Positions 1 through 5,051 of a DNA stretch of 5,051 nucleotides are shown piece after piece. The stretch comes from a virus (Duplodnaviria; Heunggongvirae; Uroviricota; Caudoviricetes). Position 1 is the first letter of the stretch. The number at the start of each line of letters is the position of its first letter. The position numbers and the translations under genes are program-made. Location: the IMG/VR virus record IMGVR_UViG_2645727562_000017, one strand, 5' to 3'. The notes beneath the pieces are model-generated. The model was not told where the DNA came from and ran no database searches. It saw only the letters and a program-made list of their open reading frames with translations.

Positions 1-1046
1 ACCGCGAGCGCCTCGCCGTAATGCTCATAGATACGCATGGCCTTTTCGCTGGTACTCATGGCGGAAAACTCCGCTTCGCTCATGGTGTCGAACGGGCTTT
101 CAGCCGGTGGCCGGATGGCATCATAAATGGCCTTACGGGTGGCTTCCCCGCCGTACTGCGTGAAGGCATCATTCCAGTCACCGAAGACCGGCGGCAGGGC
201 AACAACACCTTCACACGCATCTGCGGCTGCGGCGGCTTTTTTCTGGCCGTCACCGCTGAGGTCACGGTCAGCAGCAAGGACAATCTGACAGGCCGGATGC
301 TTCTGCCGGGCAAGGCTGGCCAGAGAAAGGAGGTTCACGGAAGAAAGCGCCACCATCACCGTTTCACCGGTCAGGTGATGCACGGTAAGTGCGGTCGCGT
401 ATCCCTCCGCTATCCACAGACGTTTTCCGGCCTGATTCTGTCCTTCAAGGGTGTGACAGGTGCCCCTGACCTGTCCGCCTTTCAGGGTGCGCTTACGGCC
501 GTCAGCACTGATTAACTGAAGGTTAACCAGTTCGCCGCTGTCGTCATACAGTGGCACCACAAGGTCACCGGCACGCCAGCTCACGCCACCGGCTCTGTGT
601 GTGCCGGTCAGCATCCGGCATTCCCGGCCGGGAAAGCCCTTGCGGGTCAGGTAGGCGTTACCGGTTCCGGGACGGGTTTTCGCCATCAGGGTTTGTGCCA
701 GTGCGGCGGCGTTCTTCCGGGCAGCGTCTGTTTCAGCAACGGCGGCAGCCGTCACTGCCGGGTCAGCCGGGGGCAGACTGCCGGTCACGGCAGCCACCTT
801 TGCGGCCGCGTCGGACGGGGAGACACCAAACACCTTTTCAACCAGTTTCAGGCCGTCACCGGCACCACACTGATTGCAGTACCAGGTGCCGCGCCCCTCC
901 CTGTCATCAAAACGGAAGCGGTCACTCCCGCCACAGACCGGACAGGGCTGATGACGGTTTTTCAGCACCTGAATCCCCAGCGCCGGGAGAATACGCGGCC
1001 AGTGGCCGAGCGCATGGCTGACGGTGGCGGTTACGTTCATTTTCAT
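1..1046 (-). CDS. alpha: P4 alpha-type replication protein (primase-helicase), N-terminal ~348 aa only; gene continues beyond the window's left edge
   Basis: Minus-strand frame open from ATG at 1046 to position 1, preceded by GAAGGAGAA Shine-Dalgarno (rc of 1052-1060). Translation begins MKMNVTATVSHALGHWPRILPALGIQVLKNRHQPCPVCGGSDRFRFDDREGRGTWYCNQCG (CxxC...CxxC zinc motif), later WIAEGYATAL and LAADRDLSGDG (TOPRIM-like acidic motifs). Not in the ORF track, probably because it is incomplete. Plus-strand ORFs here are antisense to it. Confidence 0.88.
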   Translation of the reverse strand, partial: MKMNVTATVSHALGHWPRILPALGIQVLKNRHQPCPVCGGSDRFRFDDREGRGTWYCNQCGAGDGLKLVEKVFGVSPSDAAAKVAAVTGSLPPADPAVTAAAVAETDAARKNAAALAQTLMAKTRPGTGNAYLTRKGFPGRECRMLTGTHRAGGVSWRAGDLVVPLYDDSGELVNLQLISADGRKRTLKGGQVRGTCHTLEGQNQAGKRLWIAEGYATALTVHHLTGETVMVALSSVNLLSLASLARQKHPACQIVLAADRDLSGDGQKKAAAAADACEGVVALPPVFGDWNDAFTQYGGEATRKAIYDAIRPPAESPFDTMSEAEFSAMSTSEKAMRIYEHYGEALA

Positions 1047-1060
1047 GGTGTTGTTCTCCT

Positions 1061-1381
1061 TCAGTGCAGTACCGGCGCTTTTATGTGACGGGCACAGAGT
1101 TCATCCATCACAACCAGCCCGAGAAAGGACAGCGACGGCGCGGCCTTCAGGGGGCCGGATTCCATTAAATCTTCCAGCAGGGCACAGGCTATCTGACGCC
1201 CTTTTTCCTCACCGTGCTGGCGCAGATAAAAGCCTTCCAGCTCAGCGGCGATGGCCGCCTCCAGTGACTCAAGGGTGAGATGCGGGTAGCGGTGCTGACG
1301 TTCGCACACGGTCAGCCAGGCACAGGCGACAGCGCGACGGTAAAGGGCAGCGCGTAAGACGGGCGGTAAGGGTGTTTTCAT
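1061..1381 (-). CDS. Hypothetical 106-aa protein of the left operon (P4 orf106-like), immediately upstream of alpha
   Basis: ORF track 1061..1381 (-), 106 aa. Strong RBS GGGAGGAAAACAA before the ATG (rc of 1382-1395). Ends 14 nt before the alpha start. No recognisable motif. Confidence 0.7.
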
Positions 1382-1448
1382 TTGTTTTCCTCCCTGTGAC
1401 AGATGACTGCATTCCGTGCCGGTTGCATTAACTGATAAGGCATATCTG

Positions 1449-1488
1449 CGTCTCCTGAAGACGTGCGTATCCCTGCGCGAATACGCAC
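1449..1488 (-). repeat. Two adjacent inverted repeats in the orf151-orf106 intergenic spacer
   Basis: CGTCT-cctga-AGACG (1449-1463) followed by GTGCGTAT-N10-ATACGCAC (1463-1488, 8-bp perfect stem). No adjacent U-run on the transcribed (minus) strand, so not a canonical intrinsic terminator. Confidence 0.5.
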
Positions 1489-1516
1489 ATTTAATTTTTC
1501 GGGTGTCGTTTTTTAA

Positions 1517-1972
1517 TTACAGATAATTGCGGTAACTGTTATCCGGGGTGATTTCCGGGTCAGGCTCCGTGCGGGGAATTTCCCGCCATTCCCGCGCCAC
1601 CGGTGCCGCCCGGCTGACCGGAACAGGGTCCTGCGGGTAAATATCCAGATATTTCTCCCGCCATTTCTGTAATTCCGGGTCTCCGGCAATTTCTTTCAGT
1701 ACCGCATGCCGGTTTACGGGGCTGCGTTTAAACAGGTCAGGACGGTCACAGGTAAATTCCCGCAGAAAACGCCCCAGCGGGATGTCTGTGGTGCGTCCGT
1801 CAGCGAGGATACGCACAAGGATACTGAATTTACGGCGGTACGGGTTCCAGACAATGTCCGGGCAGCGGTACGGCATTTCCCACGGAATACCGTCTTCCAG
1901 AATGCCGACCACGGCCACATCGGGAAAACCGGCAGAACGGTAAATCTCACCGGGCTGGGGAAAATCAAACAT
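1517..1972 (-). CDS. Hypothetical 151-aa protein of the left operon (P4 orf151-like)
   Basis: ORF track 1517..1972 (-), 151 aa. Its ATG overlaps the stop of the upstream epsilon-like ORF (1965-1972), suggesting translational coupling. Function not inferable from sequence. Confidence 0.75.
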   Translation of the reverse strand: MFDFPQPGEIYRSAGFPDVAVVGILEDGIPWEMPYRCPDIVWNPYRRKFSILVRILADGRTTDIPLGRFLREFTCDRPDLFKRSPVNRHAVLKEIAGDPELQKWREKYLDIYPQDPVPVSRAAPVAREWREIPRTEPDPEITPDNSYRNYL

Positions 1973-2252
1973 GCGTCCTGTCTCCCCGGTCTTTCTGCTG
2001 GGCGAGAAAATCGCGGCACAGGCCTTTGGCTTTCAGCTCATTCAGCACAAAATCAATATCTTCATTCAGGTAGCTGAAAATATGCGGAATGTAGAGCTGA
2101 TGCAGGCCGGAGAGTTCACGGTGAATCAAATCACCCCCAACAAACTGGGATACGGCGCTGGCGCGGTTGAGCTTATGGTAAGCCTCAATGCTGAGGTGTT
2201 CACGGGCGTCATGACGCGCTGAGACGGTCTGAGGGGCTTTTTTATTACGCAC
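1965..2252 (-). CDS. epsilon: Epsilon-like protein (P4 derepression factor candidate), 95 aa from a GTG start
   Basis: Track ORF 1965..2408 (147 aa) has an implausible Cys/Pro/Val-rich N-terminus overlapping kil out of frame. An in-frame GTG at 2252 is preceded by GGAGGTG (rc of 2258-2264) and gives 95 aa ([30 protein letters not shown]...). Position (after kil, before orf151) and size fit P4 epsilon as I recall it; identity not verified. Confidence 0.55.
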
Positions 2253-2442
2253 GGGACACCTCCACCACCGGCAGACGGGCAGCAAGGGAGAGCACATAGT
2301 CACGGACAAGGGAACGGCGGGCGCTGCGTTCATCACCGGCGACGGTGCGAAGCATACAGATACGGGGATGACGGTCTGCGCGACGGACAGCCGCAAACAC
2401 AAAGACAAATTCAGGGTGTGAAGGGGTAAGGGTTGTAGCCAT
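2245..2442 (-). CDS. kil: Kil-like small protein, 65 aa; first translated gene downstream of the PLE-like promoter
   Basis: ORF track 2245..2442 (-), 65 aa. GGAGG Shine-Dalgarno 8 nt upstream of the ATG, embedded in the seqC-like repeat. Size and position match the recalled P4 kil. Confidence 0.6.
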
Positions 2443-2453
2443 GAAGGCAGCCT

Positions 2454-2496
2454 CCGTTAGAGTAGCAAATAACTGCTATCGCCGGAGTTCCCACGC
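2454..2496 (-). promoter_or_regulatory. Downstream copy of a bipartite direct repeat (candidate seqC-type target for the immunity RNA), overlapping the kil RBS
   Basis: Plus-strand CCGTTAGAGT (2454-2463) and GTTCCCACGC (2487-2496) recur at 2724-2733 and 2741-2750. On the leftward transcript these read GCGUGGGAAC ... ACUCUAACGG. Confidence 0.45.
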
Positions 2497-2693
2497 TCGA
2501 TGGCGATAGCCCAGACGGGGGTAAGAATACCGGCCTCGAACGAATACCGGCCAGCCCGGAGGCTGCCCCGCCTGAGCTACCATTGACTCAGCGGCATAAC
2601 AAGCGAACGCGAACAGGATGCACGGAATGCCACCTGCACGACAAACCACACACCACACCATAATCTGGCGCTCTGTGGCGTTGATTGCGACAC
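2497..2693 (-). ncRNA. cI: Approximate location of the P4-type immunity RNA (cI-like) within the untranslated PLE leader; exact ends not determined
   Basis: About 250 nt between promoter and kil with no convincing protein gene. The leftward transcript has several GC-rich hairpins (CUGAG-N10-CUCAG; CAGCC-UCCG-GGCUG; paired GGCCGG elements), consistent with a processed structured RNA. The track's 90-aa ORF 2476..2748 lies here and is unlikely to be a real gene. I could not locate the complementary seqB segment by eye. Confidence 0.3.
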
Positions 2694-2715
2694 AAAAAAA
2701 GACGCATGGCGCGTC
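2694..2715 (-). terminator. Candidate intrinsic terminator/attenuator in the PLE leader
   Basis: Leftward transcript reads GACGCG-CCA-UGCGUC followed by UUUUUUU (plus-strand A7 at 2694-2700; stem from plus 2701-2715). Short 5-6 bp stem, so probably weak. Confidence 0.35.
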
Positions 2716-2723
2716 ATATGTCG

Positions 2724-2750
2724 CCGTTAGAGTTACACGGGTTCCCACGC
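2724..2750 (-). promoter_or_regulatory. Upstream copy of the bipartite direct repeat (candidate seqA-type target) in the 5' leader of the PLE transcript
   Basis: CCGTTAGAGT (2724-2733) + 7 nt + GTTCCCACGC (2741-2750). Same two boxes as at 2454-2496 but with a 7-nt rather than 23-nt spacer. Confidence 0.45.
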
Positions 2751-2753
2751 CCG

Positions 2754-2809
2754 GCTGCCGATTTTGCGGCAGCGGAAAAACTATATCCGCAAATGCCGGA
2801 AAAAGGCAA
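2754..2809 (-). promoter_or_regulatory. Sigma70-type promoter for the leftward immunity/early transcript (PLE-like), with a perfect inverted repeat at the predicted start
   Basis: Minus strand: -35 TTGCCT (2809-2804), 18-nt spacer, -10 TATAGT (2785-2780). Immediately downstream is GCTGCCG-ATTTTG-CGGCAGC (2754-2773), a 7-bp perfect inverted repeat. Lies about 40-65 nt downstream of the vis stop. Confidence 0.5.
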
Positions 2810-2844
2810 GCCAGAAAAAGGGACTTTTTGCAGAGCAGGCATCA

Positions 2845-3111
2845 TCATGCGTCGTACCCCCGTTTGCGTCCGGCAATGCGCCCGGCCATCCATGCGGTGA
2901 CTTCAGAGTGCAGCCAGGCCACATTTTTACCGCCAAGACTCACCTGCGGCGGAAATTCCCCCTTACGGATGAGTTCATAGATGGTCGAGCGTGACAGGCC
3001 GCACAGGTGCATCACTTCCGGCAGACGTAAAAAACGCTCCTGCGTGATGTCCGGCAGCGGCATCAGTGGCGTCACAGGGGCGGGAGACGGGGAAGAAAAA
3101 ACAGCTTGCAT
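2845..3111 (-). CDS. vis: AlpA/Vis-family small DNA-binding regulator (P4 Vis-like; late-promoter regulator / excision factor), 88 aa
   Basis: ORF track 2845..3111 (-), 88 aa. GAGGT Shine-Dalgarno 7 nt upstream. Contains the AlpA-type helix-turn-helix signature LSRSTIYELIRKGEFPPQVSLGGKNVAWLHSEV. First gene downstream of the leftward late promoter. Confidence 0.8.
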   Translation of the reverse strand: MQAVFSSPSPAPVTPLMPLPDITQERFLRLPEVMHLCGLSRSTIYELIRKGEFPPQVSLGGKNVAWLHSEVTAWMAGRIAGRKRGYDA

Positions 3112-3164
3112 CGGGCTACCTCGTTAATGTCCATACAGCACCGGATAAGTCCGTCCGGCTTCGG

Positions 3165-3231
3165 GTAGCGCTTTATTTTGTGAATATTTTCAGCAGACGC
3201 AACAGGGGGAATTTGTTCCGGCAACCTTACA
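3165..3231 (-). promoter_or_regulatory. Leftward late promoter (PLL-like) with Ogr/Delta-type activator dyad
   Basis: TGT-N12-ACA at 3214-3231 (TGTtccggcaaccttACA). No -35. A CACAAA element about 40 nt away on the minus strand (3182-3177) parallels the CACAAT of the rightward promoter. Predicted start near 3167, about 55 nt upstream of vis. Confidence 0.6.
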
Positions 3232-3346
3232 ATGCCTGTGTATTTTTTATCCATCCCCACTGAAAGGCACTCAAAGCCACCTAAAGCAACTCGAAATTTT
3301 TATAGTGAAATACAAATCGTTTTTTCTTATTCATTCCCAGCGAATT

Positions 3347-3520
3347 AATAAAAACAAACAGTAATAAACAGCACAAAAAGCCCATCAACGGGTGAACAGT
3401 GGTGAACAGACGGTGAACAGTCATTACTGCGATTGTTCACCCTTTAACTTACTGTATTACTTATCTTTTTTCTTATGGTGAACAGAGGTGAACAGTAAAA
3501 TATAAAAAAACAAACAGTAA
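3347..3520. repeat. Iteron cluster in an AT-rich region (P4 crr-like cis replication element; predicted binding sites for the alpha C-terminal domain)
   Basis: Octamer GGTGAACA (rc TGTTCACC) at 3391-3398, 3401-3408, 3412-3419, 3477-3484, 3487-3494 (10-11 bp phasing) plus one inverted copy TGTTCACC at 3434-3441. Flanked by a 15-bp direct repeat AAAAACAAACAGTAA at 3350-3364 and 3506-3520. Many AACAG pentamers; adjacent AT-rich tract 3250-3370. Confidence 0.72.
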
Positions 3521-3573
3521 GCCGGTTTTTCCTGCGACCTTTTCCTGGCTTGCCGGTCTGAGGATGAGTCTCC

Positions 3574-3640
3574 TGTGTCAGGGCTGGCACATCTGCAATG
3601 CGTCGTGTTGTTGTCCGGTGTACGTCACAATTTTCTTAAC
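3574..3640 (+). promoter_or_regulatory. Rightward late promoter (Psid-like) with Ogr/Delta-type activator dyad
   Basis: TGT-N12-ACA at 3574-3591 (TGTgtcagggctggcACA). No -35. -10-like CACAAT at 3626-3631. Predicted start near 3638, 26 nt before the sid ATG. Confidence 0.62.
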
Positions 3641-3663
3641 CTGAAGTGACGAGGAGCCGGAAA

Positions 3664-4398
3664 ATGTCTGACAACACCATCCCTGAATATCTGCAACCCG
3701 CACTGGCACAACTGGAAAAGGCCAGAGCCGCCCACCTTGAGAACGCCCGACTGATGGATGAGACCGTCACGGCCATTGAACGGGCAGAGCAGGAAAAAAA
3801 TGCGCTGGCGCAGGCCGACGGAAACGACGCTGACGACTGGCGCACGGCCTTTCGTGCAGCCGGTGGTGTCCTGAGCGACGAGCTGAAACAGCGCCACATT
3901 GAGCGCGTGGCACGCCGGGAACTGGTACAGGAATATGACAATCTGGCCGTGGTGCTGAATTTTGAACGCGAACGCCTGAAAGGGGCGTGTGACAGCACGG
4001 CCACCGCCTACCGGAAGGCACATCATCACCTGCTGAGTCTGTATGCAGAGCATGAGCTGGAACACGCCCTGAATGAAACCTGTGAGGCGCTTGTCCGGGC
4101 AATGCATCTGAGCATCCTGGTACAGGAAAATCCGCTCGCCAACACCACCGGCCATCAGGGCTACGTCGCACCGGAAAAGGCTGTCATGCAGCAGGTGAAA
4201 TCATCGCTGGAACAGAAAATAAAACAGATGCAAATCAGCCTCACCGGCGAGCCGGTTCTCCGGCTGACCGGACTGTCAGCGGCAACACTCCCGCACATGG
4301 ATTATGAGGTGGCAGGCACACCGGCACAGCGCAAGGTGTGGCAGGACAAAATAGACCAGCAGGGAGCAGTGCTTAAGGCCAGAGGACTGCTGTCATGA
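3664..4398 (+). CDS. sid: Sid, capsid size-determination (external scaffold) protein, 244 aa
   Basis: Track ORF 3646..4398 starts at a GTG without an RBS. The ATG at 3664 has GAGGAG 7 nt upstream and gives 244 aa beginning MSDNTIPEYLQPALAQLEKARAAHLENARLMDET, which matches what I recall of P4 Sid. Stop overlaps the delta start (ATGA at 4395-4398). Confidence 0.9.
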   Translation: MSDNTIPEYLQPALAQLEKARAAHLENARLMDETVTAIERAEQEKNALAQADGNDADDWRTAFRAAGGVLSDELKQRHIERVARRELVQEYDNLAVVLNFERERLKGACDSTATAYRKAHHHLLSLYAEHELEHALNETCEALVRAMHLSILVQENPLANTTGHQGYVAPEKAVMQQVKSSLEQKIKQMQISLTGEPVLRLTGLSAATLPHMDYEVAGTPAQRKVWQDKIDQQGAVLKARGLLS

Positions 4399-4895
4399 TT
4401 TACTGCCCGTCGTGTGGACATGTTGCTCACACCCGTCGCGCACATTTCATGGACGATGGCACCAAGATAATGATTGCACAGTGCCGGAATATTTATTGCT
4501 CTGCGACATTTGAAGCGAGTGAAAGCTTTTTCTCTGACTGTAAAGATTCAGGAATGGAATACATTTCAGGCAAACAGAGATACCGCGATTCACTGACGTC
4601 AGCCTCCGGCAGTATGAAACGCCCGAAAAGAATGCTTGTTACCGGATATTGTTGTCGGAGATGTAAAGGCCTTGCACTGTCAAGAACATCGCGGCGTCTG
4701 TCTCAGGAAGTCACCGAGCGTTTTTATGTGTGCACGGATCCGGGCTGTGGTCTGGTGTTTAAAACGCTTCAGACCATCAACCGTTTCATTGTCCGCCCGG
4801 TCACGCCGGACGAACTGGCAGAAAGCCTGCATGAAAAACAGGAACTGCCGCCAGTACGCTTAAAAACACAATCATATTCGCTGCGTCTGGAATGA
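4395..4895 (+). CDS. delta: Delta, late-gene transcriptional activator; tandem duplication of an Ogr-type zinc finger, 166 aa
   Basis: ORF track 4395..4895 (+), 166 aa. Two copies of C-X2-C-X22-C-X4-C: CPSC...CRNIYC in the first half and CRRC...CTDPGC in the second, the Ogr/Delta hallmark. Confidence 0.9.
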   Translation: MIYCPSCGHVAHTRRAHFMDDGTKIMIAQCRNIYCSATFEASESFFSDCKDSGMEYISGKQRYRDSLTSASGSMKRPKRMLVTGYCCRRCKGLALSRTSRRLSQEVTERFYVCTDPGCGLVFKTLQTINRFIVRPVTPDELAESLHEKQELPPVRLKTQSYSLRLE

Positions 4896-4900
4896 GGGCT

Positions 4901-4916
4901 GCCGGTTAACACCGGC
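4901..4916 (+). repeat. Perfect GC-rich palindrome in the delta-psu spacer
   Basis: GCCGGT-TAAC-ACCGGC directly after the delta stop. T-run (tattttta, 4932-4939) begins 15 nt downstream of the palindrome, too far for a canonical intrinsic terminator. Confidence 0.4.
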
Positions 4917-4968
4917 CGTCGCCGCACACCGTATTTTTATTCTTCAGCATGATGAGAAAGAGATAACG

Positions 4969-5051
4969 ATGGAAAGCACAGCCTTACAGCAGGCCTTTGA
5001 CACCTGTCAGAATAACAAAGCAGCATGGCTGCAACGCAAAAATGAGCTGGC
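4969..5051 (+). CDS. psu: Psu (polarity suppression / Rho antagonist and capsid decoration protein), N-terminal 27 codons only; gene continues beyond the window
   Basis: ATG at 4969 opens MESTALQQAFDTCQNNKAAWLQRKNELA, which matches what I recall of the P4 Psu N-terminus. Frame is open to the window end. Position after delta as in P4. Confidence 0.82.
   Translation, partial: MESTALQQAFDTCQNNKAAWLQRKNEL

Follow-up and report, generated by a model that had tools for sequence, protein, structure and literature searches.

Satellite phage P4 has been studied for decades. More than 1000 P4-like elements have been catalogued, and they occur in almost half of Escherichia coli genomes (Moura de Sousa and Rocha 2021, PMC8628076). 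The same work describes a defence-gene hot spot in these satellites and reports that delta, which encodes an Ogr/Delta-type activator, is nearly universal and essential among them (PMC8628076). SeqA, an RNA element of P4 immunity, is a structural homologue of IsrK (PMC4825925). Here we analyze a stretch of DNA of 5,051 nucleotides (IMG/VR virus record IMGVR_UViG_2645727562_000017), referred to as the window and numbered from its first letter. There is very little room for doubt that the window is the conserved core of a P4-like satellite prophage in an enterobacterial genome, and that it would work as phage P4 does. The identification builds on direct observations, namely sequence identity, gene integrity, protein domains, RNA family matches and the covariation of RNA boxes among relatives. 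The host of the satellite is almost certainly E. coli or Shigella. The regulatory, replication and capsid-hijacking core of P4-type satellites is already known, in agreement with the first-pass annotation, made from the letters alone, which had described the region as well characterised in P4 and of low novelty. The window is ordinary except for a rare variant of the small-RNA immunity switch.

A P4-like satellite core in a bacterial contig

A megablast search of 50,697 phage records returned one colinear alignment, to Enterobacteria phage P4 (X51522.1 / NC_001609.1, positions 5924-10970, plus strand), with a coverage of 100%, an identity of 97.8% and a score of 8715 bits; older partial P4 records match the respective parts of the window. 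Compared base by base, the window shows 110 differences from P4, comprising 106 substitutions and 4 one-base insertions (window positions 2456, 2474, 2541 and 2726), and all four insertions fall within the immunity leader. Identity to P4 is uneven, at 92-94% in the immunity leader and 98-100% in the genes. Projection of the P4 annotation onto the window revealed no internal stops in the P4-named genes, and the identity of the proteins to those of P4 is 97.6-100% overall. No evidence contradicting the P4-like identification was found. The protein genes are the following:

1-1046, minus strand: alpha, primase-helicase; N-terminal 348 of 777 codons, cut by the end of the window and contig; 98.4% nucleotide and 99.1% amino acid identity to P4
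1061-1381, minus strand: cnr (orf106), copy-number regulator in P4; 100% amino acid identity to P4 ORF106; Pfam DUF5375 (2.9e-63)
1517-1972, minus strand: orf151, no assigned function; 98.0% amino acid identity to P4 ORF151; PHROG 10748 (unknown function)
1965-2252, minus strand: epsilon, helper derepression protein; 95 amino acids, 99.0% amino acid identity to P4; Pfam PF25738 Derepression (7.7e-51)
2245-2442, minus strand: kil, Icd-like cell-division inhibitor; 65 amino acids, first translated gene after the PLE promoter
2845-3111, minus strand: vis (orf88), AlpA-type excisionase and regulator; 88 amino acids, intact, 98.9% amino acid identity to P4 ORF88; Pfam Phage_AlpA (7.3e-21)
3664-4398, plus strand: sid, capsid size determination, external scaffold; 244 amino acids, 99.2% amino acid identity to P4 Sid
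4395-4895, plus strand: delta, late-gene activator with tandem Ogr-type zinc fingers; 166 amino acids, 97.6% amino acid identity to P4 Delta
4969-5051, plus strand: psu, polarity suppression and capsid decoration; first 27 codons only, 100% identical to P4

The P4 gene order and orientation that the first-pass annotation had proposed fit both the P4 records and the domain searches, and so do the product names that it had given to Sid, Psu, epsilon and kil. The motifs that it had seen in the translations all have Pfam matches. The alpha fragment contains Zn_Ribbon_Prim at residues 30-66 (7.8e-19) and Toprim_3 at residues 210-299 (3e-13), Vis matches Phage_AlpA in keeping with the AlpA-type helix-turn-helix, and Delta matches Ogr_Delta in two stretches (6.8e-22), consistent with a double zinc finger. 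The cysteine ligands of Delta are located at 4/7/30/35 and 86-87/90/113/118, and all eight are kept; the four amino acid changes from P4 include none at these positions. The 244-residue, 166-residue and primase translations are 99.2%, 97.6% and 99.1% identical to P4 Sid, Delta and alpha, values that clearly rule out the lack of similarity which the annotation had named as its refutation. Sid also has a structural match, PDB 7jw1, 'Size determination protein Sid' (5.4e-156). The spacer of 73 nucleotides before psu is 100% identical to P4. The psu fragment matches the Pfam family Psu with E=1.5e-5 and 25 bits, just under the cut-off of 27.4 bits because only 22 of the 182 profile positions lie inside the window.

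Of the seven components by which P4-like satellites are defined (PMC8628076), the window has six, in the conserved order: delta, sid, psu, alpA (vis), epsilon and alpha. The seventh, the integrase, lies beyond the contig ends, as does cos. The annotation of the contig is now fixed as a P4-like satellite core.

The window is the entire contig JHRZ01000106.1 (5051 bp) of the draft bacterial assembly GCA_001265735.1, with which it is 100% identical in reverse orientation. A match was found in 1164 of 5426 complete E. coli genomes (21%), and in 955 of them it extends over 80% or more of the window; a genome holds at most four copies, and the best full-length identity is 98.5%. The related places in these genomes number 1396; all are chromosomal and 0 are on a plasmid. 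Because the window is a whole contig of a bacterial assembly and its related places are all chromosomal, it is an integrated mobile element in a bacterial chromosome. The earlier description of the window as 'not a cellular locus' is imprecise and is to be read in this sense. Chromosomal P4-like prophages, such as that of strain SC467 (NZ_LR782232.1), next to ssrA, and the loci L031 and L032 of GCA_051218175.1, are 98.5-98.6% identical to the window over its whole length.

In the relatives, the layout runs from the integrase through variable cargo, psu, delta, sid, vis and the leftward operon to alpha, beside ssrA, transfer RNA (tRNA) or transfer-messenger RNA (tmRNA) genes or other chromosomal sites. 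Their integrase is located beyond the hot spot on the psu side, and some loci also have an integrase gene after alpha. From psu to the integrase, these loci (L004, L008, L010, L011, L021, L022, L024-L027, L029, L031 and L032) carry cargo that varies strongly and contains many defence genes. It includes reverse transcriptases (SLATT_5 in three loci), a SIR2 protein with a DUF87 ATPase, an OLD-like ATPase with a UvrD helicase, an nSTAND protein with an Mrr domain, RexA and a HATPase_c_3 protein. Since the window is a P4-like satellite core, the stretch beyond its psu end in the complete genome probably holds a hot spot of defence genes and, after that, an integrase at a tRNA or tmRNA site, as in the relatives.

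The immunity leader and its RNA boxes

Nearly all the unusual variation of the window is concentrated in its RNA immunity leader, and the eta reading frame is broken there; neither had been noticed in the first-pass annotation. The elements of the leader are:

2443-2844, minus strand: immunity leader, between kil and vis
2714-2848, minus strand: truncated eta frame, 44 codons against 199 in P4, from six-frame translation; the start ATGATGATG overlaps the vis stop
2695-2786, minus strand: PLE leader RNA with the seqA target; box 1 GUGGGAA within the match at 2738-2748, box 2 CUCUAACGG within the match at 2722-2732
2694-2715, minus strand: intrinsic terminator, GACGCGCCAUGCGUC followed by U7, from a terminator scan; 3' hairpin of the Rfam isrK match
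2499-2587, minus strand: CI RNA (P4 immunity factor); Rfam RF01695, C4 antisense RNA, 69.7 bits against a gathering score of 45, E=1.3e-12, full length
2535-2543 and 2521-2527, minus strand: seqB boxes in the CI RNA, box 2 UCGUUCGAG and box 1 UUCUUAC, respectively
2451-2494, minus strand: seqC target; box 1 GUGGGAA within the match at 2484-2494, and box 2 CUCUAACGG

The predicted fold of the CI RNA has an energy of -49.3 kcal/mol (z=-4.7 against shuffles). On the upstream side, the leader is matched on the minus strand by the Rfam family isrK (RF01394) at 2695-2773, with 74.5 bits against a gathering score of 50, and by the c4-a1b1 upstream target (RF03163) at 2734-2786, with 51 bits against 46.7. 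Box 2 of seqC overlaps the Shine-Dalgarno sequence of kil, GGAGG (2451-2462). We take the leader terminator to be the t1 of the P4 literature (compare Briani et al. 2000, cited in PMC4825925). The names eta, PLL and Psid for elements of the window are, likewise, presumably those used for P4.

The eta frame opens at the vis stop and continues into kil in the same frame. In the window, the extra base in seqA (position 2726) puts it out of frame, so that 44 codons are left. It is truncated in the same way in L031 and L032, a pair of copies from an independent chromosome-scale assembly, while a different frameshift leaves 89 codons in L010 and the frame is intact in elements of the SC467 type; eta seems to be dispensable in nature. 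A collection look-up with the eta fragments of 44 and 59 residues and the frames of 90 and 61 residues over the CI region returned no record.

Leader alignments (A2 and A3) of the window, P4 and more than 10 relatives reveal that the complementarity between the CI RNA and its targets is composed of two parts, a box 1 (target GUGxxAA, CI UUyyCAC) and a box 2 of 8-9 nucleotides. The three sites seqA, seqB and seqC covary in most elements, and at least six distinct types occur among the relatives. The boxes compared with those of the window are:

P4: box 1 target GUGAGAA, CI UUCUCAC; box 2 target UUCACAGG, CI CCUGUGAA
SC467: box 1 target GUGGAAA, CI UUUCCAC; box 2 target UCUAACGG, CI CCGUUAGA
L004: box 1 target GUGGAAA, CI UUUCCAC; box 2 target GUUAUCGG, CI CCGAUAAC
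L006: box 1 target GUGAGAA, CI UUCUCAC; box 2 target CUCGAAGG, CI UCUUCGAG
L021 class: box 1 target GUAGGAA, CI UUCCUAC; box 2 target CUUCAAGG, CI CCUUGAAG
L032: box 1 target GUGGAAA, CI UUUCCAC; box 2 target CUCUAACGG, CI CCGUUAGAG

Box 1 and box 2 types assort independently (L005, L008 and L010). In a simple duplex model, the energies of eight coherent elements range from -32 to -36.5 kcal/mol for the CI RNA with seqA and from -36.6 to -42.6 kcal/mol for the CI RNA with seqC, and in most cases no other pairing in the same row is as strong as the cognate one. The covariation of the boxes and the duplex energies support the antisense mechanism described for this system (PMC4825925).

In the window, the targets seqA and seqC carry alike GUGGGAA and the rare 9-nucleotide CUCUAACGG of the L032 type. 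The CI box 1, UUCUUAC, forms 7 pairs with GUGGGAA, of which two are G.U, and the CI box 2, UCGUUCGAG, faces CUCUAACGG over 9 positions that include one G.U and one C x U mismatch. The targets of the window are bound better by the CI RNAs of L032, SC467 and L005 (-38.8 to -41.6 kcal/mol on seqC), and the CI RNA of the window binds the targets of L006 better than its own. The 31-mer of the CI loop that contains seqB has no match in GTDB representatives, IMG/VR or JGI metagenomes, and nothing more than 97% identical to any of three 101-base pieces was found in the 5426 complete E. coli genomes. Nine matches to a 19-mer of the CI loop (in Acetobacteraceae, Gemmatimonadota, Chloroflexia and metagenome contigs) extend over the seed only and were rejected as chance.

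The CI RNA of L032, by contrast with that of the window, carries CCGUUAGAGG, which matches CUCUAACGG perfectly. Relative to the common SC467 type (L032:7114-7543 against L003:11430-11856), L032 has one extra base each in seqA (C), seqB (G) and seqC (C). This is a three-way compensatory insertion that extends box 2 from 8 to 9 pairs. The 5426 complete E. coli genomes lack these three bases: their best matches span 427, not 430, bases. The variation in the immunity boxes is a small and neat case of compensatory change between three sites of an antisense system; it adds to the known biology of P4 and overturns nothing.

Mixed box sets are present in L031, L035 and L036, two of which are short metagenome contigs, so that mosaics also occur outside the window. 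Among L005, L008, L010, L031, L035 and L036, some elements combine one type of seqA with a different type at seqB and seqC. This suggests either recombination inside the leader of ~400 nucleotides or assembly chimeras in short metagenome contigs. The region 2401-2800 of the window, with an identity of ~90-92% across 24 relatives, is a hypervariable patch of the family. In a very common class (L021-L030), the stretch from the terminator to the CI RNA (window equivalent 2585-2693) is replaced by a divergent one that is ~49 nucleotides shorter (76% over the leader). This class has its own box types, and gene callers annotate only kil in it although an eta frame of 184 codons is open.

Regulatory sites and proposed working of the satellite

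The promoters, the origin of replication (ori) and the candidate late-promoter sites are distributed as follows:

2780-2809, minus strand: PLE promoter; -35 TTGCCT, spacer of 18 nucleotides, -10 TATAGT
3214-3231, no strand assigned: TGT-N12-ACA dyad upstream of vis, from a pattern search; candidate Delta/Ogr site of PLL
3257-3286, plus strand: three tandem 10-nucleotide 'ori type 2' repeats of the P4 annotation, all three diverged from P4
3391-3494: ori with six type-1 repeats TGTTCACC of the P4 annotation, on the minus strand at 3391, 3401, 3412, 3477 and 3487 and on the plus strand at 3434
3574-3591 and 3612-3629, plus strand: two TGT-N12-ACA dyads, 90 and 52 nucleotides upstream of the sid ATG; candidate Delta/Ogr sites of Psid

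PLE is the sole sigma-70-like site found in the region 2200-3700 and is unchanged in all the relatives compared; the Rfam leader model begins 7 nucleotides downstream of it. The six type-1 repeats are identical in sequence and spacing to the annotated P4 repeats. Of the 23 differences from P4 in the intergenic region between vis and sid, 18 fall in 3210-3294, where they alter all three ori type 2 repeats, and the region 3201-3400 (89.5% identity across 24 loci) constitutes the second hypervariable patch of the family. In the dyad on the vis side, both arms, TGT and ACA, stay fixed across 8 elements while the spacer varies; the two dyads on the sid side keep their offsets in each of the 8 elements, a single one of which has one change in a spacer. 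The assignment of these dyads to the Delta/Ogr-dependent promoters PLL and Psid is our assumption from the P2/P4 late-promoter consensus.

Every functional step proposed here is taken over from experiments on P4: the immunity mechanism follows PMC4825925, the functions of the components follow PMC8628076, and the remainder is general P4 knowledge. The leftward operon would be transcribed constitutively from PLE and, in the lytic or plasmid mode, from a Delta-activated PLL upstream of vis. The untranslated leader would present seqA, the intrinsic terminator, the CI RNA and seqC in succession, with the CI RNA being processed out of it. By means of its two short boxes, the CI RNA is expected to pair with seqA upstream and seqC downstream, and the pairing would lead to premature termination before kil, epsilon, orf151, cnr and alpha. 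These genes would be off in the lysogen because the CI pairing ends transcription early.

Upon activation, Delta or the Ogr protein of the helper would drive both PLL and Psid. The alpha protein, as primase-helicase, would start replication at the TGTTCACC repeats of the ori, and Cnr would limit the copy number. Epsilon is predicted to inactivate the repressor of the helper, with the consequent derepression of a P2-type helper, and Vis to regulate the late promoters and excision. The rightward operon of sid, delta and psu would be transcribed from Psid. Sid presumably builds an external scaffold that forces the capsid protein of the helper into small shells, Delta would activate the late promoters of helper and satellite, and Psu is expected to decorate the capsid and to block Rho.

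Several of the protein genes show further features. The function name of cnr comes from the P4 literature, and the gene is mentioned in PMC8628076; the gap between cnr and orf151 contains only 135 non-coding bases. The exact orf151 allele of the window was found in only 6 contigs of a large assembly collection, in which identical Kil and Delta proteins occur in 11876 and 28972 blocks, respectively. The kil translation is the same as that of the corresponding P4 open reading frame and matches NCBIfam NF033153, phage_ICD_like (1.6e-21), and the gene is without annotation in the P4 records.

Database labels derived from the 1990 P4 record mislead on the kil/eta region and on Sid. The P4 records X51522.1 and NC_001609.1 annotate a 'cI gene product / transcriptional repressor' of 137 amino acids over the CI RNA and kil (window 2245-2664, minus strand), and Kil inherits the label 'transcriptional repressor' in PHROG 6928 and 1743. 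In RefSeq and PHROG 6165, Sid is labelled 'polarity suppression Psu-like'. Such labels are misleading: an RNA serves as the immunity factor, Kil resembles Icd, and Sid is a size-determination scaffold.

Alternative explanations and comparison with known systems

Some observations weigh against the identification of the window as a working P4-like core. The integrase, cos, most of psu and the helicase and ori-binding part of alpha are outside the 5051-bp contig, as is the cargo hot spot. Moreover, the eta frame is truncated, and the CI RNA of the window pairs with its own seqA at -25.7 kcal/mol and with its own seqC at -31.9 kcal/mol, values 5 to 11 kcal/mol weaker than those of the coherent relatives. 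Self-immunity may therefore be weakened, or this stretch of the leader may be mis-assembled. A decayed or domesticated P4-like remnant that is no longer a satellite would agree with the broken eta frame, with the imperfect match between the CI RNA and its targets and with the frequent pseudogenes of P4-like elements, such as alpA (PMC8628076), in a window where only 5 kb are visible. We nevertheless consider such a remnant improbable: the nine recognised protein genes of the window are all intact with few amino acid changes, the ori repeats, PLE, the terminator and the late-promoter dyads are intact, and eta is also truncated in L031 and L032, both of which have the full called gene set from integrase to alpha (no kil or eta call recorded). 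There is next to no chance that the window is phage P4 itself, in the form of virion or plasmid DNA of the laboratory satellite, even though the P4 records, at 97.8% over the full length, are its best matches in the phage collection. The window differs from P4 at 110 places, chromosomal P4-like elements are closer (98.5-98.6%), and the sequence is a contig of a bacterial whole-genome assembly. The immunity boxes also differ, being GUGGGAA/CUCUAACGG and UUCUUAC/UCGUUCGAG in the window against GUGAGAA/UUCACAGG and UUCUCAC/CCUGUGAA in P4; as these immunity determinants are different, the window is not P4 itself.

The unusual leader could be an assembly artefact, a collapsed consensus of at least two P4-like copies of different immunity types in one genome, which we regard as a real but somewhat doubtful possibility. 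The window is a whole 5051-bp contig that ends inside two conserved genes (alpha codon 348 and psu codon 27), as a repeat contig would, and up to 4 P4-like copies are found per E. coli genome. Its seqB resembles a position-by-position mix of the L006 and L032 types and was found nowhere else among GTDB representatives, IMG/VR and JGI metagenomes, with nothing above 97% identity in the 5426 complete E. coli genomes. Against a collapse, an independent chromosome-scale assembly (L031 and L032) also contains the extra bases of seqA and seqC and the 44-codon eta. The CUU of the CI box 1 is not obtainable column by column from L006 (CUC) and L032 (UCC), and both changes in box 1 retain pairing through G.U. 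In addition, the sites of columns 200-275 that differ among the window, L006 and P4 fit a simple tree with the window as the intermediate, and alpha and psu stay 97-99% conserved past both contig ends, with no family-wide divergence boundary there. The alternation of P4-like and L006-like bases in these columns of A2 (window ~2586-2660), considered as a trace of recombination or chimera, is explained equally well by the three-taxon tree and is evidence for neither. A family-wide drop in conservation as the cause of the contig ends was likewise ruled out, as conservation continues beyond both of them. Alternatively, the leader might be a real hybrid allele between two specificities, with a CI RNA that is still L006-like and targets that carry CUCUAACGG, a tentative explanation that we deem unlikely. 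According to it, CUCUAACGG would derive from the common 8-nucleotide type through one-base insertions that match one another in seqA, seqB and seqC and that sacrificed the overlapping eta frame. Such an allele would confer weak self-immunity and be better silenced by CI RNA supplied in trans from another satellite in the same cell, of the L032 or SC467 type, and a C to A change in seqB (UCGUUCGAG to UCGUUAGAG) would restore full repression. It would then represent a natural intermediate in the diversification of RNA immunity specificities and in the cross-regulation of co-resident satellites.

As the core of a P4-like satellite prophage, the window has the same genes as P4 in the same order and orientation, together with the same ori type-1 repeats, PLE, leader terminator and CI RNA architecture. 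It differs from P4 in changes concentrated in the immunity leader and in the patch 3210-3294, in immunity boxes that are not those of P4, and in an eta frame of 44 rather than 199 codons. With the P4-like family at large (PMC8628076) it shares the chromosomal location, never on plasmids, whereas, like P4, it is without the gene of 75 amino acids that 61% of the members have between epsilon and alpha. Among the closest chromosomal prophages, L031 and L032 have the rare orf151 allele and the truncated eta in common with the window. L032 carries the 9-nucleotide CUCUAACGG at both seqA and seqC, and L031 carries it at seqA only, its seqC being of the L006 type. The CI boxes of the window, UUCUUAC and UCGUUCGAG, are, by contrast, found in none of SC467, L031 and L032.

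The immunity leader further resembles the C4 immunity of P1/P7 and the IsrK leader of Salmonella Gifsy-1 (Rfam clan CL00128; RF01695, RF03163 and RF01394). In these systems, as in the P4-like one, a processed small RNA has loop boxes that pair with upstream and downstream targets in its own transcript, a pairing that is imperfect in the window, and the control is exerted on downstream genes of the Icd/Kil-like and antirepressor or replication kinds. The P4-like system differs from both in its outcome, which is the transcription termination of a replication operon with no protein repressor, and in its downstream genes.

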